Shown here one piece after another: positions 5 through 13,322 of a stretch of DNA of 13,325 bases. Origin of the DNA: Acidobacteriota bacterium. GTDB lineage: Bacteria; Acidobacteriota; UBA6911; JACQSX01. The notes under the pieces were generated by a model. The model worked only from the letters and a program-made list of their open reading frames with translations, had not been told where the DNA came from and made no database searches. Position 1 is the stretch's first letter. Each line of letters starts with the position of its first letter. A program made the translations under genes and the position numbers. The stretch is taken from positions 1 through 13,325 of the forward strand of contig DASXQR010000184.1 in assembly GCA_036507075.1 (NCBI GenBank), in the 5' to 3' direction.

Positions 5-112
5 GCATTCCTTCACCGCAGAGGCGCAGAGAACGCAGCGGTTGCGCAGAGACGTGCAAACGAAACTCTGCGCATTCTCTGCGTCCTCTGCGCCTCTGCG
101 GTGAAGGAATGC
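5..112. repeat. Long inverted repeat built from CGCAGAG-type tandem units
   Basis: 5-31 GCATTCCTTCACCGCAGAGGCGCAGAG is the perfect 27-bp reverse complement of 86-112. Pairing continues with a few mismatches to 51/66, leaving a 14-nt loop. Confidence 0.95.
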
Positions 113-213
113 AGGTGCCAGACAAAACTTTGTTAGAAAAAGCGAGAAGTCGCCAACTGGTAACACAAAGGACACAAAGTCAGGGGATTTCGGCGGCGCC
201 GCCCCCAATTTCA

Positions 214-230
214 TTGACCGCTCAGGTCAC
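214..230. promoter_or_regulatory. Candidate operator palindrome TGACC-N5-GGTCA upstream of preA
   Basis: TTGACCGCTCAGGTCAC lies about 77 bp upstream of the preA ATG. It resembles the RutR/PydR box TTGACCAnnTGGTCAA but has a 1-bp longer spacer. TTGACC also looks like a -35 hexamer. Confidence 0.3.
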
Positions 231-306
231 CAAGTGGTTAAATTCATATAAACGCTTCGCTTGCGCCCTGAGCGTCTCTCACGGCCGCCTGCCTCAAAGG
301 AGAAGT

Positions 307-1419
307 ATGAGCCTGGATGTTTCAGTAACTTTTTGCGGTATTAAGTTTGACAATCCGTTTCTTCTGTCATCGGCCCCGCCCACCGAGTCGGACAGCAATA
401 TCATGCGCGCCTTTGATGCCGGCTGGGGCGGTGTAGTCACCAAGACCATCGGATTGCACCCGGTGGTGAACGTATACGGACCGAAAACCAAATTCTTGAG
501 AGCCACTCCCGGAACAACGGAGCTTTCCATGAGGAAGCGACTCGGGGCCGTGCTGCACTCATCGTGGAACTGGGAGCTGATCTCGGACAAGGCCCTGGAC
601 TGGTGGGTTCCTCGAATCCACAAGATCAAGAAAAACTATCCCAACAAAATCCTGATCGCCTCCATCATGGCCGGATCCGGTAACGACAAGGAACTGGCAC
701 ACTGGCAGACGCTGGCCAAGGCATGCCAGGAGGAAGGCGCCGACGGATTCGAGCTGAATTTTTCCTGCCCCCACATGGACCGCGAAGACATGGGATCCAA
801 TATCGGGAAGAGTCAGGAACTCTGCTCGGTGGTGACAAAGGCGGTCAAAGAGGTCGCCAAGGTCCCGGTCTGGGCAAAGCTCACCCCTTCCACCACCGAT
901 ATCGTCGCGGAAGCCGGCGCGGCATTTCGCGGACGCGCCGACGCGATTTCGTCTTCCAATACTTTCCCCTCACTGCCGCTGGTTGATCCGGAGACGCTGG
1001 AATTCGAAATGAATGTGGATGGATTCGTCTCCAGTGGCGGCCTGGGCGGACCGGCCATCCTGCCGTTGTCGCTGGCCAAGATGGCACAGCTCACGCAGGC
1101 TTTCCCGGACAAGAACTTCTCGGGCATCGGAGGGATCTCTGAGTTCTCGCATGCGTTGAATTACTTTCTACTTGGATGCGGAACGGTTCAGATTTGCACG
1201 GCCGCCATGCTGGACCATGCCATCGGGCCCAACGTCATCAAGACGCTCATCCAGGGGATGCATGATTTTCTGGAGCGGAATGCCCATCGCGGCTGGGAGC
1301 GCCTGGAAGATTTTCGCGGGCTGATGCGAGACCGGATTGTGGCCCAGTCGCAGATCCGCCGGCCCGACGATGCAGACTACCATGGCGGTCATGACGTGGC
1401 CGAAGGCTACGCAAGTTAA
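307..1419 (+). CDS. preA: Dihydropyrimidine dehydrogenase FMN/pyrimidine-binding subunit (PreA/PydA-like), 370 aa, no C-terminal ferredoxin domain
   Basis: Motifs NPFLLSSAPPT, RAFDAGWGGVVTKT, NWELISD, ELNFSCPH (catalytic Cys), VPVWAKLTP, SGIGGI and VQICTAAM. Start placed at ATG 307, which follows an AAGGAG Shine-Dalgarno at 297-302, rather than ORF-track start 109. Confidence 0.9.
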   Translation: MSLDVSVTFCGIKFDNPFLLSSAPPTESDSNIMRAFDAGWGGVVTKTIGLHPVVNVYGPKTKFLRATPGTTELSMRKRLGAVLHSSWNWELISDKALDWWVPRIHKIKKNYPNKILIASIMAGSGNDKELAHWQTLAKACQEEGADGFELNFSCPHMDREDMGSNIGKSQELCSVVTKAVKEVAKVPVWAKLTPSTTDIVAEAGAAFRGRADAISSSNTFPSLPLVDPETLEFEMNVDGFVSSGGLGGPAILPLSLAKMAQLTQAFPDKNFSGIGGISEFSHALNYFLLGCGTVQICTAAMLDHAIGPNVIKTLIQGMHDFLERNAHRGWERLEDFRGLMRDRIVAQSQIRRPDDADYHGGHDVAEGYAS

Positions 1420-1429
1420 ACCCAGATCC

Positions 1430-1636
1430 GAGCCGCGCGCGTAAGCAAGCGGACCCTCCGCGGGGATTTGCCACGAAGACACGAAGAACCGCTATTCATT
1501 TTTGAAGTAACACTTCTCATGAATCAATCCAGGTTGTCGGAGAAGTGGCACTTCTAACTCAATCGTTGTCCTTCGTGTCTTCGTGCCTTCGTGGCAAACT
1601 ACCAGCGGAGGGTCCGCTTGCTTACGCGCGCGGCTC
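1430..1636. repeat. Nested composite inverted repeat (REP-like outer pair plus CACGAAG tandem inner pair) between convergent genes; probable bidirectional terminator or 3'-end structure
   Basis: The outer 32-bp arms 1430-1461 (GAGCCGCGCGCGTAAGCAAGCGGACCCTCCGC) and 1605-1636 are perfect reverse complements. The inner arms are 1467-1486 (TTTGCCACGAAGACACGAAG) and 1571-1598. The terminator role is inferred from position. Confidence 0.92.
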
Positions 1637-1658
1637 CGTTGATTCTGCTGTATCGACT

Positions 1659-2984
1659 TTATCCGACCCTCATTGCCTGAAACGACTCGCGCAGAATTTT
1701 AAGGCCTTCTTCAATTTCACCGGCGGTGATGTTCAGCGCCGGCGCGATACGCAGGACGTTTCCGTAGAGCCCTCCTTTTCCGATCAGCAACCCGCGTTTC
1801 TTTGTCTCCTCCATCAATTGCAGCGCCTTATTGGACGCGGGGGTGCGGTCGCCCGTTGTTTCATCCTCGACCAGCTCGATGGCCTGCATCAGGCCCATGC
1901 CCCGGACCTCCCCGATGGTTTTTGGACAACGCTTTTGAATTTCCTCCAGTCCCGCCCGAAGCATGTTTCCCATTCGGTCCGCATTGGCAGGAAGATTTTC
2001 CCTTTCAATCACTTCCAGGGTGGCGGCGGCGGCGGCGGTCGAAATCGGATTTCCTCCGAAGGTGGAGAGCGACAGATGTTTGAGCGAATCGGCCACAACG
2101 GGTGTCGCAATGGTGGCTCCCAGCGGCAGCCCGTTGGCGATCCCTTTGGCCATTGTAATGACGTCGGGCTGCACCCCCCAGTGCTCGATGCCGAACATTT
2201 TCCTGCCGGTGCGTCCCAAGCCTGTCTGCACCTCATCGCAGATAAAGATGCCGCCATACTTTCGAACAATTCCCACCGCGATTTCGAAATACTCCGGCGG
2301 CGGCGTGATAAATCCGCCCACTCCTTGAATCGGCTCCGCCAGAAAACCGGCGACCTGTCCCGTGGTGGTGGTTTGGATCAGCTCTTCGATATCTCTGGCG
2401 CACTGCACGCCGCAGGATTCCGGCTGCAGCTTCAACGGACAGCGGTAACAGTAGGGCGCGAGCGCGTGTTTGATTCCGGGGATCTGCGATGAAAGGGGGC
2501 GCCAGGACGCGTGAGCCGTGAGCGACTGCCCGAGCATCGAGCGTCCCGAGTAAGCATGCCTCAGCGCGATAATTTCCTGGTTACCCGTGGCAACCTGCGC
2601 CAGCATGACACCCGTCTCGTCAGCCTCGGTTCCCGACGTGGTGAAAAATACTTTCCGCAGATTGCCGGGCGTGATGCGGGCCAGGGTTTCGGCCAGCTTC
2701 ACGATTCCGATGGTGGGATAAAGCGTGGAAACATGCCCCAGACGCTCAATTTGCGTCCGGATGGCGGCGTTGACGTGTTCATTGGCGTGGCCGACGGAGA
2801 TGGTGAGAATGCCGCCAAAAAAATCGAGGTAAGTCTTTCCGTCCAGGTCGGTAAGCCTGTTTCCCTTTGCCTGCACCGGGACGATCGGCTCGCTGTAATA
2901 ATTGATCGTGGAGAAAAGGAATTCACCATGTTTGCGCCGCACTGCCTGTGAATCGAGGGCCTTGTCTTTTTCAAAGATTTTCAT
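1659..2984 (-). CDS. Class III PLP-dependent aminotransferase, probable beta-alanine/beta-aminoisobutyrate aminotransferase (AGXT2/PYD4/PydD-like)
   Basis: Motifs YLDFFGGILT, SGTEADE, AEPIQGVGG, DEVQTGLGRTG, MAKG (PLP lysine) and STFGGNP. Substrate is inferred from the cluster. Start placed at ATG 2984 (alternative 3011) because ORF-track start 3065 lies inside a hairpin repeat. Confidence 0.88.
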   Translation of the reverse strand: MKIFEKDKALDSQAVRRKHGEFLFSTINYYSEPIVPVQAKGNRLTDLDGKTYLDFFGGILTISVGHANEHVNAAIRTQIERLGHVSTLYPTIGIVKLAETLARITPGNLRKVFFTTSGTEADETGVMLAQVATGNQEIIALRHAYSGRSMLGQSLTAHASWRPLSSQIPGIKHALAPYCYRCPLKLQPESCGVQCARDIEELIQTTTTGQVAGFLAEPIQGVGGFITPPPEYFEIAVGIVRKYGGIFICDEVQTGLGRTGRKMFGIEHWGVQPDVITMAKGIANGLPLGATIATPVVADSLKHLSLSTFGGNPISTAAAAATLEVIERENLPANADRMGNMLRAGLEEIQKRCPKTIGEVRGMGLMQAIELVEDETTGDRTPASNKALQLMEETKKRGLLIGKGGLYGNVLRIAPALNITAGEIEEGLKILRESFQAMRVG

Positions 2985-3025
2985 GAAATTATCCAATCGA
3001 GATGACTGCATTGCTAAAATCGGCG

Positions 3026-3076
3026 GGCTTGGTGCCTTGGTGGTAAAAAAAGAATGAACCACCAAGGCACCAAGCC
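3026..3076. repeat. 51-bp hairpin element (CACCAAG family), copy 1
   Basis: GGCTTGGTGCCTTGGTGGT (3026-3044) and ACCACCAAGGCACCAAGCC (3058-3076) form a perfect 19-bp stem with a 13-nt A-rich loop. Confidence 0.95.
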
Positions 3077-3110
3077 AGACCCTTAAAGCCGGCCGTTATC
3101 CCTGGCCTGA

Positions 3111-4496
3111 TCAACTGCGCGCGCTGCGTTTGAGAAAGTTTCCCCGCCCCGGTCTTCCCATGAACTTGCCGGAATCCACTACCAGCTCACCGCGGGAAAA
3201 CACGATTTCCGTTGTTCCGCGGACCTTCCGGCCTTCATATGGATTGTAGTCAACCCGCATGTGCAGGTCCTTTTGTCGCAGTACGGTTTCTTTTTGCGGA
3301 TCAAATATCACAATGTCGGCGTCAGACCCGGGGGCAATGGTGCCTTTTCGCGGAAACAGGCCGAAAATCTTGGCCGGGCCGGTCGCCGTCAGATCCACAA
3401 AGCGATTCAGCGAGACGCGCCCGGCTCCCACGCCGCCGTCGAAGACCAGACTCATGCGCGTCTCGATTCCGGGAGCGCCGTTGGGAATCTTTGAGAAGTC
3501 ATTTCGACCCAGCTCTTTTTGCTCTTTCATACAGAAGGGACAGTGGTCTGTGGAAATCGCCTGCAGGTCATTGAAGGCCAGTCCGCGCCAAAGTTTCTCC
3601 TGGGTCTCTTTGGAACGCAGCGGAGGACTCATGACGTATTTCGCGCCGTTGAATCCCTCCTCTTCATAATTGTCATACGAGAGAAACAGATACTGAGGGC
3701 AGGTTTCTGCGTAGGCCGGAAGTCCACGGTCGCGCGCCTCGGTCACCATTTCAAGGGCCTCCGCAGCCGAAAGGTGAACGATGTAGACTGGAACTCCGGC
3801 TATTTCAGACAGCGCTATAGCGCGATGTGTTGCCTCAGCCTCGGCCCGTGCCGGTCGGGTCAAGGCGTGGTATTTGGGCGCCGTCTTCCCTTCGGCCAGC
3901 GCCTTCTGTACCAGCACATCGATCGCTCCTCCATTTTCGGCATGCATGCAGATGGTGCCCCCGTTGTCGCCGGTGCGAAGCAGCGCGCGGAATATGGAAG
4001 CGTCATCGAGCATGAAGACTCCCGGGTATGCCATGAAGAGCTTGAAGGACGTCACGCCCTCGCGCACCATCTCGTCCATTTCCTTCTCCACGGAGGGGTT
4101 CAGATCGGTAATGATCATGTGAAAGCCGTAGTCGATCACCGCCTTCCCTTCCGCTTTCTTCATCCAGGCTTCGTATGCCTGTCGCAAGGTTTGTCCCTTG
4201 TACTGAATGGCAAAGTCGACAACGCAGGTGGTGCCTCCATGAGCGGCGGCTGTCGTGCCGGTCAGAAAATCATCTGTCGACATAGTGCCCCCAAAAGGCA
4301 TGTCGAGATGGGTGTGAACATCGATGCCGCCGGGAAGCACGCATTTTCCTTCAGCGTCAATGGTCTTGTCCGCCTTGAAGGCCGCGGGATCCAGCCTTTG
4401 CCCAATGATTGAAATCTTCTCGCCTTCGATCAGAAGATCACCCCGATATTGATCTGTGGCCGTAACGATGGTTCCGTTTTGAATCAGTGTTTTCAT
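3111..4496 (-). CDS. hydA: Dihydropyrimidinase / D-hydantoinase (PydB)
   Basis: Amidohydrolase motifs PGGIDVHTH, TSFKLFMAY (carboxylated Lys), MHAEN, YIVHLS, AETCPQYL, STDHCPF and KIPNGAPGIE; 461 aa. Confidence 0.95.
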   Translation of the reverse strand: MKTLIQNGTIVTATDQYRGDLLIEGEKISIIGQRLDPAAFKADKTIDAEGKCVLPGGIDVHTHLDMPFGGTMSTDDFLTGTTAAAHGGTTCVVDFAIQYKGQTLRQAYEAWMKKAEGKAVIDYGFHMIITDLNPSVEKEMDEMVREGVTSFKLFMAYPGVFMLDDASIFRALLRTGDNGGTICMHAENGGAIDVLVQKALAEGKTAPKYHALTRPARAEAEATHRAIALSEIAGVPVYIVHLSAAEALEMVTEARDRGLPAYAETCPQYLFLSYDNYEEEGFNGAKYVMSPPLRSKETQEKLWRGLAFNDLQAISTDHCPFCMKEQKELGRNDFSKIPNGAPGIETRMSLVFDGGVGAGRVSLNRFVDLTATGPAKIFGLFPRKGTIAPGSDADIVIFDPQKETVLRQKDLHMRVDYNPYEGRKVRGTTEIVFSRGELVVDSGKFMGRPGRGNFLKRSARS

Positions 4497-4564
4497 TAGC
4501 CGAATATTGGAAAAGATTCACCTGGACGATGCATTGCGGCACATCAGCCGCAACGAACCACAAA

Positions 4565-4741
4565 AATGCGGATTTCGGAATGCCGAATGCGGAATAACAG
4601 ACGACTTACGTCGGACCAACAAATTTTGGTCACCTGCATTCCACATTGTTCATCCACATTCCACATTCCACATTCCGCATTCCGCATTCCGCGTTCCGCG
4701 TTCCGCGTTCCGCGTTCCGCATTCCGCATTCCGCATTCCGC
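4565..4741. repeat. Facing heptamer tandem arrays (AATGCGG / CCRCRTT)
   Basis: 4565-4595 has four degenerate AATGCGG units. 4654-4741 is 3xCCACATT, 2xCCGCATT, 4xCCGCGTT, 3xCCGCATT and CCGC, ending flush against the pydC stop codon. Confidence 0.95.
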
Positions 4742-5608
4742 TTAGATTGCGACCATTCCCGAGTAAGTTTCGGGGCGCCGATCGCGGTAAAACTGCCATA
4801 CCCGCCGGACTTCTTCGATCATATCCAGATCCATCTCGGCTGCCACCAGTTCGTCCTTGTCCTCGGAGCCGACAGCCAGGAAGTTTCCCCGCGGATCAAC
4901 AAAGTAACTGCTGCCGTAAAATTTTCCAATGTTCCACGGGGCTTCCGTACCCACGCGGTTGCTGCATCCCATGAAATAACCGTTGGCTACGGCGTGCGCC
5001 GGTTGCTCCAATTTCCAAAGATACTGCGACAGGCCCGCCACTGTAGCCGACGGATTAAACACTATTTCCGCGCCGTTCAAGCCCAGCAGGCGCGCGCCTT
5101 CCGGGAAATGTCGGTCATAGCAGATGTAGACGCCGACCTTCGCGTAGCGCGTCTGAAAGACGGGATAACCAAGATTGCCTGGTCTGAAAAAGAATTTCTC
5201 CCAAAATCCGGAAGTGTGCGGAATATGGTTCTTGCGATACTTCCCCAGATATTTTCCATCGGCATCGTAAACGGCGGCGCTGTTGTAAAAGATCCCGGCC
5301 TGTTCACGCTCGAAGATCGGGACCACGACCGCCATCTGAAATTTCCTGGCCACGGTGGCGATGGCATTCGTGGTCGGGCCCGGTACTTCTTCGGCCGCGT
5401 CATACCATCGCGAATCCTGTGACGGGCAGAAGTACGGGCCGTTGAAAATCTCCTGAAGACAGAGAATCTGAACCCCGCGCTTGCCCGCTTCCTCGATCAT
5501 CGGCACATGCTTGTCCAACATCGCCTTTTTAATCGACTCGATGGAAGCGCCCGGATCGTTGACCGGGTTGCTCATTTGGATCAAACCACCGGTTACTTTT
5601 CTTGGCAT
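4742..5608 (-). CDS. pydC: Beta-ureidopropionase (nitrilase-superfamily carbon-nitrogen hydrolase)
   Basis: Nitrilase triad E (CLQEIF), K (YRKNHIP) and C (ICYDRHFPE), plus FWEKFFFRPGNLGYPVF and WQFYRDRRPE. GGAG Shine-Dalgarno at 5615-5618 on the minus strand. Adjacent to dihydropyrimidinase. Confidence 0.9.
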   Translation of the reverse strand: MPRKVTGGLIQMSNPVNDPGASIESIKKAMLDKHVPMIEEAGKRGVQILCLQEIFNGPYFCPSQDSRWYDAAEEVPGPTTNAIATVARKFQMAVVVPIFEREQAGIFYNSAAVYDADGKYLGKYRKNHIPHTSGFWEKFFFRPGNLGYPVFQTRYAKVGVYICYDRHFPEGARLLGLNGAEIVFNPSATVAGLSQYLWKLEQPAHAVANGYFMGCSNRVGTEAPWNIGKFYGSSYFVDPRGNFLAVGSEDKDELVAAEMDLDMIEEVRRVWQFYRDRRPETYSGMVAI

Positions 5609-5621
5609 GAATTACTCCAAT

Positions 5622-5797
5622 GTGGTCAGTGGTCCGTGGTCAGTGGTCCGTGGTCAGTGGTCAGTGGTCAGTGGTCAGTGGTTGGTTGGTCGTTAGGCGA
5701 TCGGTTGATTAGAGCGACACCCTCGACGGCGAAACAAAGCGCACAGCTCCCCCACGACTCACAACGGACCACTGACAACGGACCACTGACAACGGAC
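5622..5797. repeat. Facing heptamer tandem arrays (GTGGTCA/C and ACAACGG-ACCACTG)
   Basis: 5622-5677 has eight consecutive GTGGTC(A/C) units. 5761-5797 is (ACAACGG ACCACTG)x2 plus ACAACGG AC, the reverse-complement-type arm. Confidence 0.95.
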
Positions 5798-5802
5798 GCG
5801 AA

Positions 5803-7305
5803 TCAGAACCATCGGCTTATCGTGACCTTCTTTTCAGTGTAAAAATCGACTCCGTCGCGTCCGTGGGCCTTCAGGTCGCCGAAGAAAGAATCTTTCGAGC
5901 CGCCGAAGGGAAAGAAGGCCATTGGCGCAGCCACTCCGATATTGACGCCTACCATGGCTGCGGGGGCGTGATAACGAAACTGGCGCGCCACTTTTCCGCT
6001 GGAGGTAAAGATGGAAATCGCATTGGCATTGGGATGCGAATGCGCCAGCGCAATCGCTTCGTCCAGATCCTGCACATTTGTCACCGCTGCGACCGGGCCG
6101 AAGATTTCCTCGCGTCCCACTTTCATTTCCGGACGCACGCCATCGAAAACAGTGGGCCCCACAAAGTAGCCGTTTGGACGATCGGGAACCTCGACCTGGC
6201 GTCCATCCAGAACCAGGCGTGCTTTCTCCTGCAAGCCTGCCTCGATGTAACCGAGAACCCGCTCCTGATGGGCCCTGCTGATGACGGGCCCCATCTTCGT
6301 TTCGGGCTCGAGTCCGTCGCCCACGCGAATGGATCTGGCCGCATCGACAAAACGCTCCAGGATTTCGCCATGCTTTTTCCCCACTGTCACCACTACGCTT
6401 CCTGCCAGGCATCGCTGGCCGGAACAGCCGTAAATGGATTCGCTGACGACGGGCAGGGACCTATCCAGATCCGCGTCGGGCATTACGATGATGAAATTCT
6501 TCGCGCCGCCCAGCGCCTGAACGCGCTTGCCCTCTGCGGCAGCCATTTGATACACGCGCCTCGCCACCGGCGTGGATCCAACAAAGGAAACGCCGCGGAT
6601 ATCGGGATGCCTGCAAAGGCTTTCCACCACTTCCTTTGCGCCATTGACCAGATTCACCACTCCGGCAGGCATGCCCGCCTGGTGAAGGAACTCAAAGATG
6701 CGGCGCTGGGAAAGAGGCACCTGCTCGGACGGTTTTACGATAAAGGTATTGCCGGTCGCCACCGCAAAGGGCAGGAACCAGAGCGGGACCATCGCCGGGA
6801 AATTGAAAGGAGCGATTGCGGCAAACACTCCGATCGGCTGGCGCACCATCTCGCAATCAATACCGGAGGCGATGTCCTCCAGGCCGTAGCCCATCATCAG
6901 CGAGGGCATGCCGCAGGCGACCTCCACGCATTCAATTCCACGACGCACGCTGCCACGCGCTTCATCCAGCGTCTTACCGTGTTCCGTGGTAACGATCCGC
7001 GCCAGCTCGTCAAAGTGCTGTTCCAGGAGATCTTTGAAACGGAACATGTATCGTGCCCGCTCCACTACAGGCATCGCTCTCCACTTCGGAAAAGCCTGGC
7101 GGGCGGCTCGGATAGCTTCATCCACGTCTTCTCGCCTCGACAGCGGGACGCGCGCAATCACTTCACCGCGGGCCGGGTTTATCACGTCCTTGCAGTCGCC
7201 GCCGGAAGATGAGACCCATCGACCTCCGATATAGTTCTGCAGGTTTGCAAGTGCGGGACGAATCGCCTCGGCCGTGCTTGGTTTTCCATTCAAAGTCTTA
7301 GACAT
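5803..7305 (-). CDS. mmsA: CoA-acylating (methyl)malonate-semialdehyde dehydrogenase
   Basis: Motifs PFNFPAMVPLW, KPSEQVP, SFVGSTPVA, RVQALGGAKN, GQRCLA (catalytic Cys), EEIFGPV and FFPFGGSKDSFFGD. Start placed at ATG 7305 with GGAG 5 nt upstream. Confidence 0.93.
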   Translation of the reverse strand: MSKTLNGKPSTAEAIRPALANLQNYIGGRWVSSSGGDCKDVINPARGEVIARVPLSRREDVDEAIRAARQAFPKWRAMPVVERARYMFRFKDLLEQHFDELARIVTTEHGKTLDEARGSVRRGIECVEVACGMPSLMMGYGLEDIASGIDCEMVRQPIGVFAAIAPFNFPAMVPLWFLPFAVATGNTFIVKPSEQVPLSQRRIFEFLHQAGMPAGVVNLVNGAKEVVESLCRHPDIRGVSFVGSTPVARRVYQMAAAEGKRVQALGGAKNFIIVMPDADLDRSLPVVSESIYGCSGQRCLAGSVVVTVGKKHGEILERFVDAARSIRVGDGLEPETKMGPVISRAHQERVLGYIEAGLQEKARLVLDGRQVEVPDRPNGYFVGPTVFDGVRPEMKVGREEIFGPVAAVTNVQDLDEAIALAHSHPNANAISIFTSSGKVARQFRYHAPAAMVGVNIGVAAPMAFFPFGGSKDSFFGDLKAHGRDGVDFYTEKKVTISRWF

Positions 7306-7353
7306 GGCCACTCCGTAGTATGATTCTCGATCTTTACGCGTTATCAGGGGCCG

Positions 7354-7382
7354 ATTATACGCCAAACGCGCTAACGTGGCGA
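7354..7382 (-). promoter_or_regulatory. Putative sigma70 promoter of the mmsA-pydC-hydA-aminotransferase operon
   Basis: On the minus strand: TCGCCA (7382-7377, 4/6 match to TTGACA), a 17-nt spacer, and a perfect TATAAT (7359-7354), about 50 nt upstream of the mmsA start. Confidence 0.55.
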
Positions 7383-7405
7383 CGCGGCACGCCGCATCAG
7401 AGTCA

Positions 7406-7471
7406 GGCCGCGACAGGTCGCGGCCACGCAGGGAGCAACTGGCGGCAACGGAGCCGCGACATGTCGCGGCC
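7406..7471. repeat. Pair of GCCGCGACAKGTCGCGGCC palindromes
   Basis: 7407-7425 and 7453-7471 are 18/19 identical at a 46-bp period. 7453-7470 is a perfect 18-bp palindrome. Confidence 0.85.
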
Positions 7472-7494
7472 CTGGAGTTTGGACATTTTTGGAA

Positions 7495-7587
7495 GTGGAG
7501 AGACGGCCCGATGGCCGTCTCGGGCGGAGTCGACGGCAGGGCAATTCCACGACATTCCCTGAGACGTCCCTCAGGACGTCTCTCCGC
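7495..7587. repeat. Inverted REP-like doublet (REPIN-like), GYGGA foot plus GAGACGKCC hairpin
   Basis: 7495-7521 reads GTGGA-GAGACGGCC-cgat-GGCCGTCTC. 7561-7587 read on the minus strand is GCGGA-GAGACGTCC-tgag-GGACGTCTC. Confidence 0.85.
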
Positions 7588-7639
7588 GCAGCGAGCCGCG
7601 CACGGTCCAGAGGATCTCGAAATTAATTTCTTAAATCGA

Positions 7640-10060
7640 ATGCATCAGCCGGCCTCTTCACCGCACACGCGCGATCTTGCGTTTGGCATTTTCTTCATCT
7701 CTTTGGCTTCTCTTGCGTTGGAAATCACGTTAACCAGGATTCTGAGTGTCATTACCTGGTATTACCTGGCCTATTTTGCCGTGTCTCTTGCCATGCTGGG
7801 CATGACAGCCGGAGCGGTAGCGGTTTATCTGAACAAGGCGTGGTCCGACCCTGCACGGTTCGAAAGGAGACTGGCGGTAAACGCCATTGCCTTCGCCTGG
7901 ATCACACCGGTAGCCCTGTTGCTGCTCTGCTGGATTCCTCTCAGATCCCCTTCGATCGACCTGCTTTCCCACATCAGCCCGTTGTCTTCACTGCTGCTGG
8001 TCAGCGCTTCCTGTGCGCTGCCGTTCTATTTTTCGGGAGTGGCGGTAACGGCCGTTTTGACTCGATCCGCGGCTCCCGTCTCGAAACTCTACGGCGCAGA
8101 CCTGGTGGGAGCGGCCGTGGCGTGCCTCTTCGTCCTGTCGGGCCTGAACCTGATGGATGCGCCCTCGCTGGTTCTGGCCTGCGCGGCGTTCGGCGGCATT
8201 GCGGCATTCTTTTTTTGCCGTACCACGGGCCCGACAATACTTCGCGCAGCTTCGCTGGCGAGCTTTCTCCTGGTCCTCGCGGCGAGCGTGGTGAATGCCC
8301 TCAGGCCCGAGATCAGACCGAGATTTGTGAAGGATCAATATGAAAATCCCCGGACGTACGCCCTGGAAAAATGGAACACTTTATCCAAAGTAGGGGTGAC
8401 AAATGTCCTCACCGATATCCCTCAATACTGGGGGAAAAGTCCGAAGGCCCCGCTTACTCCGGTACGCCAGCGATGGTTGAACATCGATGGAAACGCGGGC
8501 ACCAATTTGCGGCAGTTTTCCCGGCTGGAGGACATCGAGCACCTTCGCTATGACGTCACTTCAGCAGCCTATTACATCGCTCCTCCGGGCCGAGCCGGGA
8601 TTATCGGGGTGGGCGGCGCCAAAGATATTCAGTGTGCCATTGTGTTCCATCACTCGCCGGTAATCGGCATCGATGTAAACCCGATCTTTATTCAGCTCCT
8701 GAGGCGGCAGTTCGCCGACTTTGGCGGTGTGGCCGCGAGAAAGGACGTAATACTGGTGGTGGATGAGGGCAGAAGTTACTTCAGCCGATCTGAAGATCAT
8801 TTCTCCATCATACAGATGGCGCTGGTCGACACCTGGGCGGCAACCGGGGCAGGGGCTTTCACACTCTCTGAGAACGCGCTCTATACCACAGACGCATGGA
8901 AGATTTTTTATCAGCGACTGGCCGATGGCGGAATCCTTACAGTCTCCCGCTGGTTTAATCCCAACGACCCAAGCGAAACAGGAAGGATATTGAGCCTGGC
9001 TGTTGCCACTCTGCTGGACGTGGGCGTAAAAGAACCGAGACAGCATATCGCTCTAATCAGTGTCGAGAACATCGCCACCTTGCTGCTCAGTCGCAGTCCG
9101 CTCGATGCGAAACAGATTGCCCGGCTGCGACAAGTCACCCGGGAATTGGAGTTCCAACCGATTATCATGCCCGACGAAATCTCACCGGTCCCGCTTCTTG
9201 CCCGGATCGCCGGCGCGCGCAGCCGGGAGGAATTGGAGAGCGTCGCTGCGCAGTCTCCGTTGAATATTTCGCCGCCGGGAGACGAGAAGCCTTATTTTTT
9301 CAATATGCTCCGCCTCAAGCACATCGGCTATGTGATGAAACACGGCATGGGCATTGCGAGCGGAAATCTGGTGGCGACGGTCTTTCTTGCAGGATTGATC
9401 GCGGTGCTGCTGCTCCTGCTGCTAGCCGTAGTGCTGCTGCCGTTGATCTTGAAATACCGGGGATCGCTGGCATCGGTGGTCAGGAGTCCAGGCTTTGTGC
9501 CGGGCGCTCTGTATTTTTCACTCATTGGCGCCGGGTTTATGTTTATCGAAATCGGCGTAATGCAGAGGATGAGCATCTTCCTTGGCCATCCGGTTTATGC
9601 CCTGGTTGTGCTGTTACTGACCATTACGCTCAGCAGCGGATGCGGCAGCCTTGCCAGCGATTATTTGCCAAAGACTCGAAGGTTGTTTTTTTGCTACCCG
9701 ATCGTAATCGGGGCGGGAATTCTGCTGTTCCGACTTATCTTGAATTACCTGCATGCATTCGCCATCGGTTATCCGCAATCGCTCAAAGTGCTCATTACAA
9801 TTGCAAGTCTCTTTCCGCTGGGAATGGCTATGGGAATGTGTTTCCCGCTCGGCATGTACCTGGTGCGCCGGCACCAGGATACGCAGACTCCGTGGTATTG
9901 GGGGCTGAACGGGATTTTCAGCGTGCTGGCTTCGACACTTGCTATCTTCACCTCGATTTATTTCGGGATCTCGACAACGTTCTACCTGGCCGCTGGATGC
10001 TATCTCAGCCTTCTGGCGTGCAATGTGAAGTTGGTGAAGGGGAGTTATGAAGGGTTATGA
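7640..10060 (+). CDS. Polytopic membrane protein with central spermidine-synthase-like class I SAM-binding domain (function unknown)
   Basis: N- and C-terminal multi-TM blocks (LALEITLTRILSV, LYGADLVGAA, FMFIEIGVMQR, WGLNGIFSVLAS) flank a soluble domain with IIGVGGAKD, IDVNP, VDEGRSY and DTWAATGAGAFTLSENALYT. Start placed at ATG 7640 because the ORF-track extension to 7376 runs through repeats. Confidence 0.8.
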   Translation: MHQPASSPHTRDLAFGIFFISLASLALEITLTRILSVITWYYLAYFAVSLAMLGMTAGAVAVYLNKAWSDPARFERRLAVNAIAFAWITPVALLLLCWIPLRSPSIDLLSHISPLSSLLLVSASCALPFYFSGVAVTAVLTRSAAPVSKLYGADLVGAAVACLFVLSGLNLMDAPSLVLACAAFGGIAAFFFCRTTGPTILRAASLASFLLVLAASVVNALRPEIRPRFVKDQYENPRTYALEKWNTLSKVGVTNVLTDIPQYWGKSPKAPLTPVRQRWLNIDGNAGTNLRQFSRLEDIEHLRYDVTSAAYYIAPPGRAGIIGVGGAKDIQCAIVFHHSPVIGIDVNPIFIQLLRRQFADFGGVAARKDVILVVDEGRSYFSRSEDHFSIIQMALVDTWAATGAGAFTLSENALYTTDAWKIFYQRLADGGILTVSRWFNPNDPSETGRILSLAVATLLDVGVKEPRQHIALISVENIATLLLSRSPLDAKQIARLRQVTRELEFQPIIMPDEISPVPLLARIAGARSREELESVAAQSPLNISPPGDEKPYFFNMLRLKHIGYVMKHGMGIASGNLVATVFLAGLIAVLLLLLLAVVLLPLILKYRGSLASVVRSPGFVPGALYFSLIGAGFMFIEIGVMQRMSIFLGHPVYALVVLLLTITLSSGCGSLASDYLPKTRRLFFCYPIVIGAGILLFRLILNYLHAFAIGYPQSLKVLITIASLFPLGMAMGMCFPLGMYLVRRHQDTQTPWYWGLNGIFSVLASTLAIFTSIYFGISTTFYLAAGCYLSLLACNVKLVKGSYEGL

Positions 10061-10260
10061 AGGGGTATGAGGGGGACGATTTATTGGCTTGGTGTCTTGG
10101 TGGTTCAGTTTTTTTTGACCACCAAGGCACCAAGCTACTGAACTTCGCTTTCCTCCCATTTTCATAATCCCTCGTAATCCTTCCTTCCCCTTCCGCCCCT
10201 TCATAACCCTTCCGTCCCCTTCATAACCCTTCATGACCCTTACTTCCCCTTCATAACCCC
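10044..10260. repeat. Facing 10-mer tandem arrays (TTATGAAGGG / CCCTTCATAA) overlapping both flanking stop codons
   Basis: 10044-10075 is GTTATGAAGG GTTATGAAGG GGTATGAGGG GG. 10161-10260 has about ten 10-bp-period units including TCATAACCCT, TCCGTCCCCT, TCATGACCCT and TACTTCCCCT. Confidence 0.9.
10086..10136. repeat. 51-bp hairpin element (CACCAAG family), copy 2, inverted relative to copy 1
   Basis: GGCTTGGTGTCTTGGTGGT-tcagttttttttg-ACCACCAAGGCACCAAGCT is 46/51 identical to the reverse complement of 3026-3076 by manual alignment. Confidence 0.93.
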
Positions 10261-11553
10261 GACTCCCTTCAGAATCTCCAGACATTCGATCATTGCCCGG
10301 CCGTTGTGATATCCGGCCTTCCAGATGTGCGCTTTGTCTCCTTGTGGGCGACCATCAGGCGTAATGTTGGCGTGCCACTCTCCGTTCTTCCAGTCAACCT
10401 GATACTGCTCGATGAAGCCGTAACTCTTTTCAAAGACGTCGCGGTATTTTCGCTCTCCGGTAAGCCGATACATGTAGAGCGCGCTCACGATGGCCTCGGC
10501 TTCCACCCACCAGATCTTGTTGAGACGATCGGCAGGCTGATTGAACGGCCCGCTGTCATAGAATCCCCCTTTTTGCGAATCGTATCCGTATTTGAGGGAG
10601 TAATCGAACAGCGTGCGGTATAAATCGACAAAAGGATGGGTGGGAATGCCTGCCGCCCGGCAGGCATCTATCAACAACCAGATGTTTTCCAGGTCATGTC
10701 CGTAAGAAACCCGGGCGAATTCGGGATCTAAGCGCGGGGTCCAGTCTTGCTCGTACTTGTCAGTGCACGCCCCCAGGGTTTTTCTTACCACTGTATTGCT
10801 CTCGATGTTGATCAGCTCGAGCAGACGCTCCCGAGCCAGTGGGAGCCGGCTGGCACGGTAGAAGGTGGTCATTGCCTCGAGAAGATGCAGGTGTGTGTTC
10901 ATCAGCTTGAAACCCGACTGTCCGGGACGGGTCATGTAAGAGGCTTCATCGGAAGGCGGAGGCGTCCAATCCTCGTTGAAGAATTCAACGTATCCACCGT
11001 AGTTGCTGTCATGCGATTTGGTCTCGAGGAGATTGAAGAAACGAACGGCGAAATCCAGGACGTCCTTCCTCTTGCTGGCCAGATAAAATTCTGAAAGAGC
11101 ATAAAGCCCGAAGGATTGCCCGTAGAGATGCTTCCTCGGCTTCATCTTCTGGTCGCCACCGGCGTCCACTTCCCAGTAGAATCCTCCGTTCTTGTGATCC
11201 CACATTTTGTCTCGAAGAAAGCGATAGCCAAGATCGGCAGCCTCGAGATATTCCTTGCCGCCATAGCCGGCGCGATACATTCTCGAGAAGAGCCACACAG
11301 TCCGGGCTTGCGTCACAATCATCTTGGTGCCGTCGCCTTTGGCCTCTCCCTGTGGACCGAAGTTGATGATGTAACCGCCGTTTTTTCGGTCCAGGCTCTT
11401 CGTCAACCAGAATGGAGCAATGTTCTCTTTCAGGTTCCTTTCGAGCCGGGGGATGCAGGTTTTGGCAAGGTCCTGAAGGTTCTGCCCAGAAAGGCTGGAA
11501 TCAAAGAATACGAAGATAATCAGAAGCCGTGCGAATTTTGGTAAGTGTCCCAT
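10240..11553 (-). CDS. AGE-family epimerase (cellobiose 2-epimerase / N-acylglucosamine 2-epimerase-like) with putative signal peptide
   Basis: Motifs NIAPFW...DRKNGGY, QARTVWLFS, KHLYGQSFGLYAL, MNTHLHLLEA, SYGHDLE, WWVEAE and WKAGYHNGRA. Start placed at ATG 11553 because the ORF-track extension to 11817 is translated repeat. Confidence 0.88.
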   Translation of the reverse strand: MGHLPKFARLLIIFVFFDSSLSGQNLQDLAKTCIPRLERNLKENIAPFWLTKSLDRKNGGYIINFGPQGEAKGDGTKMIVTQARTVWLFSRMYRAGYGGKEYLEAADLGYRFLRDKMWDHKNGGFYWEVDAGGDQKMKPRKHLYGQSFGLYALSEFYLASKRKDVLDFAVRFFNLLETKSHDSNYGGYVEFFNEDWTPPPSDEASYMTRPGQSGFKLMNTHLHLLEAMTTFYRASRLPLARERLLELINIESNTVVRKTLGACTDKYEQDWTPRLDPEFARVSYGHDLENIWLLIDACRAAGIPTHPFVDLYRTLFDYSLKYGYDSQKGGFYDSGPFNQPADRLNKIWWVEAEAIVSALYMYRLTGERKYRDVFEKSYGFIEQYQVDWKNGEWHANITPDGRPQGDKAHIWKAGYHNGRAMIECLEILKGVGVMKGK

Positions 11554-11581
11554 ATTTGTCCAGTTTGCCAGCGGCGTTGGC

Positions 11582-11806
11582 GGCACGCGAAGCACAGAGC
11601 CACGTCCCGCAAGGGCGTGGCGGAAGCATGGTAAGTCGGCTTGACATTCACCTGAATCTGCCGCCACGCCCGTATGAGGCGTCTGACAGACCGCGGGCCA
11701 GGCTCCCTCAGCCAAGCAATAAGGACCGAAACAGCCGGCCGGGTCGGAGGCGGCTGCATAGGTTCCGCCACGCCCTTGCGGGACGTGGCTCTGTGCTTCG
11801 CGTGCC
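11582..11806. mobile_element. 225-bp non-autonomous MITE/REPIN-like element with perfect 44-bp inverted termini
   Basis: 11582-11625 GGCACGCGAAGCACAGAGCCACGTCCCGCAAGGGCGTGGCGGAA is the exact reverse complement of 11763-11806, with a 137-bp interior. No target-site duplication is seen, and mobility is inferred. Confidence 0.7.
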
Positions 11807-11879: not shown

Positions 11880-13322
11880 TCAGATTTTTTGCTGTTTCCA
11901 TTTTCCCCGCCGGAACAGAATCACACTCACGACGGCTACCAGCGCGGCGGTAATCGGTATCGCTAAAAATACTCCCCGCGGACCCAGTTTTGCGGTGAAG
12001 GCAAGCGCGTAGGCCAGTGGAATCTGCACCAGCCAGTAACAAAACAGATTGATGAGCGTCGGGGTTGCAGTGTCCCCCGCTCCATTGAACGCCTGAACCA
12101 TCACCATTCCGTAGGCATAGAACAGGTAGCCGTAGCTCAAATATCGCAGGCAGCTCACGCCGTACGGAACGATTGCCGCGTCGCGCGTGAACAAACCTAT
12201 TACGGGCTCGGCAAAAAATATGAATACAAGGGCGATGCCCGCCAAAAAGCACATATTTGCGAGTCCCGCCAGCCACACCGCCTTCTCGGCGCGCGCAGGC
12301 TTGCCGGCTCCCAGGTTCTGTCCCACCATGGTGGCGGCGGCGCCCGCCATTCCCCACGACGGCAGAATCGTAAAGTAAATTACCCTTACCGCAATGGTGT
12401 AACCCGCTACCGCCGTTCCGCCGAAAGAAGAAATAATCCGGACCAGCCCCATCCAGCTCGCCGTGGAGATCAGGAACTGCACTATTCCACCAATCGATAC
12501 CCGCACCAGGCGCGCCATTATGTGGAGATCCAGTCTGAGTTGCTTTCTTCCCACCTTGATGCGGCCAGTTCCGCGAGCTAACAGGAACAGCTGAAAAAGC
12601 ACTCCGGTGCCTCGTCCAATGCTGGTAGCAACCGCTGCTCCCGTCACGCCCAGTTGGGGAAAGGGGCCAAGGCCGAAAATAAAACAAGGGTCCAGAACAA
12701 TGTTGATGAAATTGGCCAGCCAGAGCACTCGCATGGCGATTGACGCATCGCCGGCTCCGCGAAACACTCCGTTCATAAGGAAGAGCAGAACGATCACCAT
12801 GTTTGTCCCGAGCATGATGGAAGTGAAGCCCGATCCTGTTTGAATAATCGCCGGCGACGCGCCCATCAGTCTTAAAAGCGCAGGTCCAAAGAAGTAACCA
12901 GACAACGCGATCGGCACGGAAATCACGATTCCCAGTGCAACCGCCTGCACGGCGGTGACGGAAGCCGCCTCGGGATCTTTCTCTCCAATTCGACGGGCCA
13001 CCATCGCGGTTGTGGACATGCAGAGGCCGAGAGCCATGGCATAGATCAGAATTAACATCGACTCGGTCAACCCCACGGTCGCGACGGCGTCGGCACCCAG
13101 GCGCGCCACGAAAAAGACATCGCAGACGACAAAGAGCGATTCCAGCGACATCTCGAGCACCATGGGTACCGATAGAAGAAGGATTCCCCGACCGATGCTC
13201 CCTTCTGTGAAATCCTGCTGCGTGCCTACAACCGCTTCTCTTAGATCGGACCAAAGCGAGACCAATCTTCCGCGGCGAGGCGGAGGCAGAGGCAATGAGT
13301 TGACAGATGCAGAGTCGTTCAT
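11880..13322 (-). CDS. MATE family efflux transporter
   Basis: About 12 TM helices, with motifs DFTEGSI, LSVPMVLEM, DVFFVARLGADAVATVG, FRGAGDA, NIVLDPCFIFG, GVTGAAVAT, VGQNLGAG and FNGAGDT. The frame is open to the window edge, so the start could lie slightly further upstream. Confidence 0.92.
   Translation of the reverse strand: MNDSASVNSLPLPPPRRGRLVSLWSDLREAVVGTQQDFTEGSIGRGILLLSVPMVLEMSLESLFVVCDVFFVARLGADAVATVGLTESMLILIYAMALGLCMSTTAMVARRIGEKDPEAASVTAVQAVALGIVISVPIALSGYFFGPALLRLMGASPAIIQTGSGFTSIMLGTNMVIVLLFLMNGVFRGAGDASIAMRVLWLANFINIVLDPCFIFGLGPFPQLGVTGAAVATSIGRGTGVLFQLFLLARGTGRIKVGRKQLRLDLHIMARLVRVSIGGIVQFLISTASWMGLVRIISSFGGTAVAGYTIAVRVIYFTILPSWGMAGAAATMVGQNLGAGKPARAEKAVWLAGLANMCFLAGIALVFIFFAEPVIGLFTRDAAIVPYGVSCLRYLSYGYLFYAYGMVMVQAFNGAGDTATPTLINLFCYWLVQIPLAYALAFTAKLGPRGVFLAIPITAALVAVVSVILFRRGKWKQQKI

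Follow-up and report, generated by a model that had tools for sequence, protein, structure and literature searches.

Inverted pairs of short intergenic repeats have been described in several bacteria, and they are the closest counterparts of the eight fold-back repeat elements (E1 to E8) analyzed here in a 13,325-nt stretch of DNA from an Acidobacteriota bacterium (assembly GCA_036507075.1, contig DASXQR010000184.1; hereafter the window). The window is one whole contig (G000:C184) of a 6.1-Mb genome that is 95.7% complete. The RecA protein of this genome most resembles those of Acidobacteriota (best matches 72-76%), which makes this the probable phylum. Doublets of repetitive extragenic palindromes (REP) are in print (PMC3116915; also PMC3733652). 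Like the elements of the window, the doublets of the REPIN/RAYT system are intergenic inverted hairpins with variable spacers; a handful of transposase genes in that system lie between copies of their own repeat, and the repeats also supply stop codons and are inserted into other palindromes (PMC3116915; PMC5581495; PMC3733652). The role of RAYT and REP is described as open, and Escherichia coli yafM is reported to be raised in competence-induced cells (PMC5581495, citing Sinha 2009). The present repeats differ from REPIN/RAYT in that only E6 is tied to a Y1 transposase gene, via remnants and an intact gene below the RAYT cut-off, and in that the tandem-arm families carry non-transposase cargo. 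A competence motif is common to three cargo classes here and is not described in the accessible REPIN/RAYT text, and the GTAG or CGTC tag is absent from the outer-end consensus of all nine families, the outer ends being the part covered.

In the Ssn GIY-YIG/NTS/SRM system, a small nuclease gene likewise lies between its own repeats and many repeats are gene-less; SsnA cuts single-stranded repeats, acts on transforming single-stranded DNA (ssDNA) and alters transformation (PMC11893778). Here, by contrast, the nuclease is GxxExxY (PDDEXK_3). The sole short GIY-YIG gene of the genome (G000:C5:1100-1500) lies between a tRNA-like sequence and its partial repeat and has neither arms nor motif. Geobacter metallireducens carries paired arrays of heptamers or octamers on opposite strands, at variable distance and in several classes per genome, which were read as sites for IHF/HU or a global regulator; no cargo gene or mobility is described in the accessible text (PMC2700814). 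The heptamer repeats of Xanthomonas and Nostoc, described as G-quadruplex repeats, are 7-nt tandem units, non-coding and near stop codons, again with no cargo gene described in the accessible text (PMC4692102). Neither report of such heptamers gives a cause for them (PMC2700814, PMC4692102).

The four-helix-bundle genes enclosed by some of the present repeats pass the model of the 23S rRNA intervening-sequence protein (TIGR02436, PF05635; PDB 2GSC, 2RLD), and matching cassettes do lie within 23S rRNA. They differ from intervening sequences in lying outside rRNA here, in having their own promoter-like motif and in being accompanied by hundreds of gene-less arm pairs. Both TIGR02436 and GxxExxY are extensive families to which, to our knowledge, no function has been assigned. 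Cyanobacterial short tandemly repeated repetitive sequences are also 7-nt tandem units, non-coding and near stop codons, and miniature inverted-repeat transposable elements are non-autonomous elements with inverted ends. E1, E2, E3, and E6 resemble the latter in being copied as whole units, and differ in showing no excess of target-site duplications and no linked DDE transposase.

Doublet architecture and paired tandem sites (PMC3116915, PMC3733652, PMC2700814, PMC4692102) and the remark on yafM and competence (PMC5581495) are thus already in print, whereas the link of paired repeats to cargo genes and to a competence promoter was not found there. A search of mostly non-subscription literature returned no paper in which genes of the TIGR02436 or GxxExxY type were connected with repeat arms or with a competence promoter, and the accessible text of the one paper mentioning GxxExxY (10.1101/2021.01.26.428298) is unrelated. 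A preliminary description of the window had called the elements a candidate undescribed family of intergenic colonizers; because paired tandem sites and REP doublets are published, the word undescribed is limited to the cargo and promoter link. With a probability of roughly 55%, we read the elements as gene-less members of several cassette families whose filled forms are likely co-activated with the competence genes, so that their proteins would act on their own repeats in incoming ssDNA and spread them.

Repeat arms enclose three classes of small gene

Profile searches of the genome returned eight TIGR02436 matches at seven loci, six GxxExxY matches and 12 Y1 transposase matches. An enclosing inverted repeat with a score of at least 30 was present at 6/6 four-helix-bundle, 2/5 GxxExxY (3/5 with a wider window) and 8/12 Y1 loci, compared with 12/282 random genes and 2/12 competence genes. 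The style of the arms tracks the class of cargo: four-helix-bundle genes mostly have 7-mer tandem arms, GxxExxY genes 8-10-mer arms, and Y1 genes hairpins. This correspondence holds in G000 and in its class-level relatives, and it extends to more distant genomes, in which arms enclose 23 of 31 cargo genes (two rows are identical rRNA copies; eight loci of the cross-genome comparison had no tblastn match, and six of these were then judged by eye). The preliminary description had associated such arms with four-helix-bundle and GxxExxY genes, and this association proved correct.

Several arm families of the window itself are found around genes elsewhere. E1-like arms surround intact GxxExxY genes in G003 and G004, and on C37 a GxxExxY gene is closed off by a hairpin of the E3 family. 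One-letter variants of the E4 arms surround four-helix-bundle genes in G001 (L314, motif present) and G038 (L406), and E5 arms surround an intact four-helix-bundle gene in the same genome (G000:C88:58558-58935, L022), again with the motif. The GxxExxY cargo matches Pfam PDDEXK_3, a PD-(D/E)XK nuclease profile; a structure search with it returned no solved structure. Of the Y1 genes, five score above the cut-off of the IS200/IS605 model and three are nearest the RAYT model, at 71, 79.3, and 43.6 against a cut-off of 80. For the four-helix-bundle protein the nearest solved structure is 2GSC (E 2e-10), an uncharacterised five-chain assembly. It is also related to Avd of diversity-generating retroelements (PF22296), and one copy exceeds the Pfam bAvd cut-off, yet the NCBIfam Avd model gives 41 against a cut-off of 80.

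Across genomes, the more similar two proteins are, the more similar their arms tend to be (Mantel rho 0.35, p 0.001; 715 pairs from 40 four-helix-bundle proteins, one short protein and three proteins lacking an arm profile being excluded), a correlation that, because kin share both gene and arm, measures co-inheritance and not binding specificity. Mean arm similarity was 0.56 in 39 close protein pairs and 0.07 in 608 distant pairs. One four-helix-bundle clade has related units at non-orthologous loci in five genomes (G000-G004), and two other close pairs are orthologous loci. These comparisons show that the four-helix-bundle gene and its arm unit are co-inherited and relocated together.

Four-helix-bundle genes directly adjoin dprA in two genomes, G038 (C15, L406) and G044 (C60, L405/L370), and dprA is closely followed by GxxExxY remnants at G001:C383:8799-8996 and G003:C73:3250-3477. 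At G000:C57:18379-18808 (L019), the left arm and motif of a four-helix-bundle cassette precede a DUF7674 gene, apparently a captured passenger. Four-helix-bundle cassettes with tandem 7-mer arms also lie within 23S rRNA at L100 and L384 (both Rfam-confirmed), and the flanks of L395 are the same as those of L384; the genomes with cassettes of matching style inside 23S rRNA are G015 and G032.

Cargo genes share a motif with competence genes

Upstream of the cargo genes we found a shared bipartite motif, which the preliminary description did not contain: approximately TCGCA, 18 bases, then GTT, with an A/T-rich lead. A matrix built from 17 cargo loci gave 74 matches of at least 18 bits in the genome and none in a shuffled genome. 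The other matches precede comEA, comEC, comF, dprA, comM, radC, recA, ssb, recG, recQ, pcrA, and a minor pilin gene, as well as an ERCC4 nuclease gene and an anti-sigma gene behind an extracytoplasmic function (ECF) sigma factor. When the matrix was retrained on 12 competence/repair genes only (originally detected with the cargo-trained matrix), 22/25 scorable cargo loci reached a score of at least 15, compared with 23/3918 genes; by class these were 6/7 four-helix-bundle, 5/6 GxxExxY, and 11/12 scorable Y1 loci. The start codon lies 6 nt past the motif in 6/12 competence/repair genes, which fits a promoter of leaderless transcripts. A bipartite motif of fixed spacing before uptake and processing genes resembles a competence regulon under an alternative sigma factor. 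We infer that the motif is such a promoter, with the ECF sigma factor at C17:71533-72081 as candidate.

We also considered the LexA/SOS regulon, which the absence of the motif before lexA (0.6 bits) and a presumed uvrC (-23.7 bits) argues against. A TTCGC direct repeat, presumably LexA-box-like, was seen upstream of recA in 9/80 loci, mostly from Acidobacteriota (L112, L117, L119, L121, L125, L130, L133, L134, L146), and not before recA in G000. Near recG, G000:C17:70859-72620 (L010) encodes an XRE regulator, the ECF sigma factor and a zf-HC2/TPR anti-sigma protein, with three motif matches nearby. Close homologues occur mostly in relatives with the motif before dprA; the locus is a candidate competence regulator of the lineage. 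Five strong-motif genes have no or only a weak family match (G000:C97:18644-19267, C48:57222-58103, C28:575-931, C28:1997-2368, and C146:66803-67360); one of them is IrrE N-terminal-like, and the group may represent further members of the regulon.

Repeat families across the genome

The preliminary description had proposed copy counts with a test of intergenic enrichment, a list of enclosed genes and an alignment with relatives. The counts show that the window repeats belong not to one family, as it supposed, but to at least nine genome-wide families of three styles, each window arm type having between 13 and 404 arms in the genome and a fixed polarity. Its view of the elements as intergenic, non-autonomous and multicopy holds. 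The 16-mers present at no fewer than six loci cover 201,915 bases, or 3.3% of the genome, and only 7384 of these bases fall within confident genes, though such genes make up 78.6% of the genome (genes were called with an in-house script and not a standard caller). A multicopy repeat is present in 2101/3747 spacers overall and in 1021/1387 spacers of 100-300 bp, so that repeats in all eight spacers of the window are typical of this genome.

Among 453 pairs of the nine families, 15 were nested (seven of them copies of one composite), none interleaved and none side by side within 100 bp. Whole-element copies, interior included, exist for E1, E2, E3, and E6, those of E2 with all three layers, and for none of E4, E5, E7, and E8 (counts in Table 1). 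The two arms of an element share private changes above the null for E2 outer arms (63; null maximum 40) and E8 (26; null maximum 24), whereas the E2 middle arms are within the null and E1 and E3 below it. We regard it as very improbable that slippage and template switching, with no part played by a cargo protein, gave rise to the tandem arms and that the small genes are passengers trapped in repeat-rich spacers. The unique loops of E4, E5, E7, and E8 without whole copies, the private changes shared within E2 outer and E8 arms and the commonness of heptamer repeats in other bacteria (PMC4692102) would suit such an origin, yet polarity is fixed, units follow protein clades, and E1, E2, E3, and E6 were copied whole. 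Nor would it explain why each cargo has its class-specific arm style across many genomes, with 23/31 genes enclosed.

Repeats favor the 3' ends of genes. Among spacers of 100-300 bp they are present in 256/282 convergent and 108/205 divergent ones, and E4 arms end no more than 15 nt from a stop codon in 61/152 cases and from a start codon in 13/120. This bias, together with the like-styled cassettes inside 23S rRNA, could be taken to mean that doublets are kept as mRNA stabilizers, processing sites or terminators, and that cargo cassettes are inserts resembling intervening sequences and hidden by folding. We regard this as very improbable: avoidance of the promoter side accounts equally well for the bias, and RNA stem-loops leave the competence motif and the family-specific cargo unexplained. 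As to intrinsic terminators, the window contains 16 terminator-like sites, equal to shuffled sequences (14.9 expected), and none coincides with an element.

Filled and empty sites in relatives

In G003, a genome of the same family whose dihydropyrimidinase is 87% identical, the spacer orthologous to window positions 2985-3110, which holds E3, is 683 bp long (L071) and contains an arm, the motif, an intact 130-aa GxxExxY gene and a second arm. By eye, repeat arms are present in 9/9 orthologous spacers of G001, G003, and G005, and the family found in the window recurs there as a pair in only one of the nine (the E5 site of G001, where it sits inside a different family and its loop is unrelated). 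Since orthologous spacers mostly carry other families, spacers are reused by changing families; the elements are neither single-copy nor fixed at orthologous sites, which the preliminary description had named as the outcome that would speak against it. E2 outer arms are present in 5/5 genomes, unlike E8 arms, which were not found in four same-family genomes (63-94% complete) and have one copy in G005. Relatives are often without cargo cassettes (figures given: four-helix bundle in 20/31 and GxxExxY in 14/31 genomes). Contigs from public runs yielded no empty allele, and as contigs break at repeats they are uninformative either way.

Some empty elements retain parts of a cassette. The E6-family arms at C17:50761 and C82:44492 surround the motif and the joined ends of an internally deleted RAYT-like Y1 gene, of which an intact homologue lies at C88:75572-76111 and scores below the RAYT cut-off. 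C82:21436 retains both ends of the four-helix-bundle cassette of C231, and a fourth element, with eleven full-length copies, retains the motif together with the 15-20 codons that end a four-helix-bundle gene. These remnants show that the empties of three families are deletion derivatives of filled cassettes. The proposal of the preliminary description that tandem elements are empty derivatives of cassettes therefore fits the E6 family and two other families of the genome; it finds no support in the tandem elements E4, E5, and E7, which have unique loops.

The same comparisons bear on a role kept by the host, in which repeats mark the chromosome, competence-induced proteins cut or bind incoming strands there and so limit or steer integration, and repeat spread is a by-product. 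In favor of such gatekeeping, deletion of SsnA raised transformation 5-fold with repeat-bearing DNA (PMC11893778), a bait model was proposed for RAYT/REPIN (PMC5581495), and cargo genes are few, with strong motif copies. We nevertheless consider it unlikely, since cassettes are often pseudogenes or deletion derivatives, shift locus between relatives and are missing from many of them, and families turn over at one and the same spacer. Gatekeeping, RNA stem-loops and protein-free slippage are not fully exclusive of one another.

Proposed explanation

A filled cassette consists of an arm, the promoter-like motif, a small gene and a second arm, and in the reading that we favor it would be switched on together with competence genes. 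DNA uptake would deliver ssDNA in which the arms could fold back. A nuclease or transposase might then cut at its own arms, by analogy with SsnA (PMC11893778) and RAYT (PMC3116915), and host DprA, RecA, ComM, and RadC, from the same regulon, could integrate the cut product, in many cases within the loop that an older element already provides. In tandem elements with unique loops, slippage and copying from one arm to the other would likely renew the arms, and the loop would meanwhile drift. A bolder version, which we hold to be doubtful, makes the four-helix-bundle and GxxExxY proteins the missing mobilizers of two very widespread and so far unexplained classes of intergenic repeat in bacteria. 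On this view they would form selfish elements without a transposase, which would exploit the competence promoter and, with the help of incoming ssDNA and host recombination, spread hairpins capped by repeats along the chromosome and from cell to cell; a given protein clade would recognize its own unit.

Several points weigh against this explanation, beginning with the fact that the activity, expression and movement proposed for filled cassettes are predictions from sequence. We know of no catalytic activity of the four-helix-bundle protein, and the Mantel result above concerns co-inheritance. No cargo gene was found for three arm families, E2 outer, E7 outer and E8: among 35 metagenome loci with E2 outer arms, none had the motif, a closing arm or cargo, and the single E8 arm of G005 has no adjoining cargo. 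E4, E5, E7, and E8, having no whole copies, are not like recently transposed units. The mostly unique loops of E4, E5, and E7 contain no cargo match, motif or promoter remnant and do not support an origin by deletion; motif scores exceeded 0 in 0/315 loops of E2, E4, E5, E7, and E8 pairs, and cargo profiles run across 2735 intergenic regions returned only 9, 6, and 15 pieces. Target-site duplications are at or within the null in 9/9 families, the E2 outer arms reaching 4/42 against a null maximum of 4.

The motif link is likewise strong within the family and weak beyond it, as far as matrix scores and inspection of upstream regions can tell. By eye, motif variants were seen before dprA in about a dozen of the 28 relatives from the class; most of these relatives encode close homologues of the ECF sigma factor. 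A matrix from 11 dprA upstream regions outside the family (selected by eye from the 28) recognized 43/67 cargo loci within the family (controls 3/64) and only 6/39 outside it (controls 2/37). In nine further, more distant genomes the motif was not evident by eye in upstream regions, and many cassettes of distant genomes lie directly behind a host gene or in 23S rRNA. Before distant recA genes the best score was 1.6 bits (78 scorable of 80 loci), which indicates that the motif is lineage-restricted. The candidate sigma factor is one of 34 candidates, and G000 and G011 alone show a clear motif at its 3' end. Moreover, as the regulon includes repair genes, DNA damage and not uptake could be the signal.

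The genome ties the TIGR02436 and GxxExxY families, paired heptamer repeats, and RAYT/REP to one condition, competence. It supplies matched pairs of protein and repeat, deletion series and an empty and a filled site, so that substrate and timing become directly testable. The window itself adds a filled orthologous site, family turnover at fixed spacers, an element-by-element assignment and a negative result on the origin of loops. Should the proteins read their own repeat in ssDNA, they would offer new sequence-specific ssDNA tools and would help to shape gene flow among soil bacteria; in the genome studied here, the repeats make up more than 3%.

Elements and genes of the window

Facing repeat arms are present at all eight places where the preliminary description had seen them, with fold-back scores of 33-95 compared with shuffle maxima of 17-26 (50 shuffles each) and with 14-20 in nine gene-interior windows. 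It had counted every spacer, eight of eight, as occupied: repeats are indeed in all eight regions, but the first is at the contig start, which leaves seven spacers bounded on both sides. Its statement that unit sequences differ between elements is contradicted by 3027-3077 and 10085-10135, the latter being the inner hairpin of E7, which are one family (51 nt, 92%). Nesting is three layers deep at 1430-1636 and two at 10044-10260. As it also noted, no mobilizer is encoded in the window: cargo profiles and the motif scan found neither a cargo gene nor a promoter motif there. The DNA fold of 1425-1640 has a z of -15 and the RNA fold of 4555-4750 a z of -6; an Rfam search of the window gave seven weak matches, none at the gathering score. 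Contigs from public soil runs match the junctions with 0 differences (X1, possibly the source sample, at 4030-4686; X2 at 11598-11792). Over 7560-11609, one X1 contig has 7 bases fewer than the window.

Table 1. Repeat elements and genes of the window, with genome-wide counts for the element families.
Feature	Position	Strand	Arms or layers	Description	Arms in genome	Facing vs reversed pairs	Whole copies
E1	5-112		5-51/66-112 (91%)	Fold-back doublet, 8-10-mer arms, GxxExxY style	37	16 vs 0	18 elsewhere
Multicopy pieces of two further families adjoining E1	113-183		Masked segments 57-135, 163-183				
E2	1430-1636		Outer hairpin arms 1430-1469/1597-1636 (93%); middle 8-mer arms 1467-1487/1578-1598; inner imperfect stem ~1501-1556	Three-layer nested composite		42 vs 0 (outer arms)	13 elsewhere, plus 28 core copies elsewhere
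E3	3026-3076		3026-3044/3058-3076	Short hairpin, commonest GxxExxY-style family	314		156 in genome
E4	4565-4741		4565-4595/4653-4741	7-mer tandem doublet, unique loop	404	151 vs 6	0 elsewhere
E5	5622-5797		5622-5682/5754-5797	7-mer tandem doublet, unique loop	169	40 vs 1	0 elsewhere
E6	7406-7587			Composite of REP-like palindromes	147 (main unit)	30 vs 0	14
E7	10033-10260		10033-10075/10161-10260	10-mer tandem arms; E3-family hairpin 10085-10135 nested inside	47	11 vs 1	0 elsewhere
E8	11582-11806		11582-11625/11763-11806	44-nt inverted arms, 100%, internal hairpin in each	62	23 vs 1	0 elsewhere
PreA-like gene	307-1419	+		Pyrimidine-degradation cluster			
Class III aminotransferase	1659-2984	-		Pyrimidine-degradation cluster			
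Dihydropyrimidinase	3111-4496	-		Pyrimidine-degradation cluster			
Nitrilase-family amidase	4742-5608	-		Pyrimidine-degradation cluster			
Methylmalonate-semialdehyde dehydrogenase	5803-7305	-		Pyrimidine-degradation cluster			
806-aa multi-pass membrane protein	7640-10060	+		No match in NCBIfam search			
Sugar epimerase family gene	10240-11553	-					
MATE transporter	11880-13322	-					

The gene set is ordinary, comprising a pyrimidine-degradation cluster and genes for a membrane protein, an epimerase and a MATE transporter. Some arms reach the coding sequences: the E4 arm ending at 4741 directly adjoins a stop codon, and the E7 arms provide the genes on either side with their stop codons (10058-10060 and 10240-10242), the final codons of the 806-aa membrane protein coming from the repeat arm. 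G003 conserves the order of the pyrimidine-degradation genes (307-7305), and G001 and G005 do so in part. The score of the PreA-like gene is under the cut-off of its family, and no PreT partner is encoded in the window; the gene faces the remaining cluster, and G003 shows the same arrangement.

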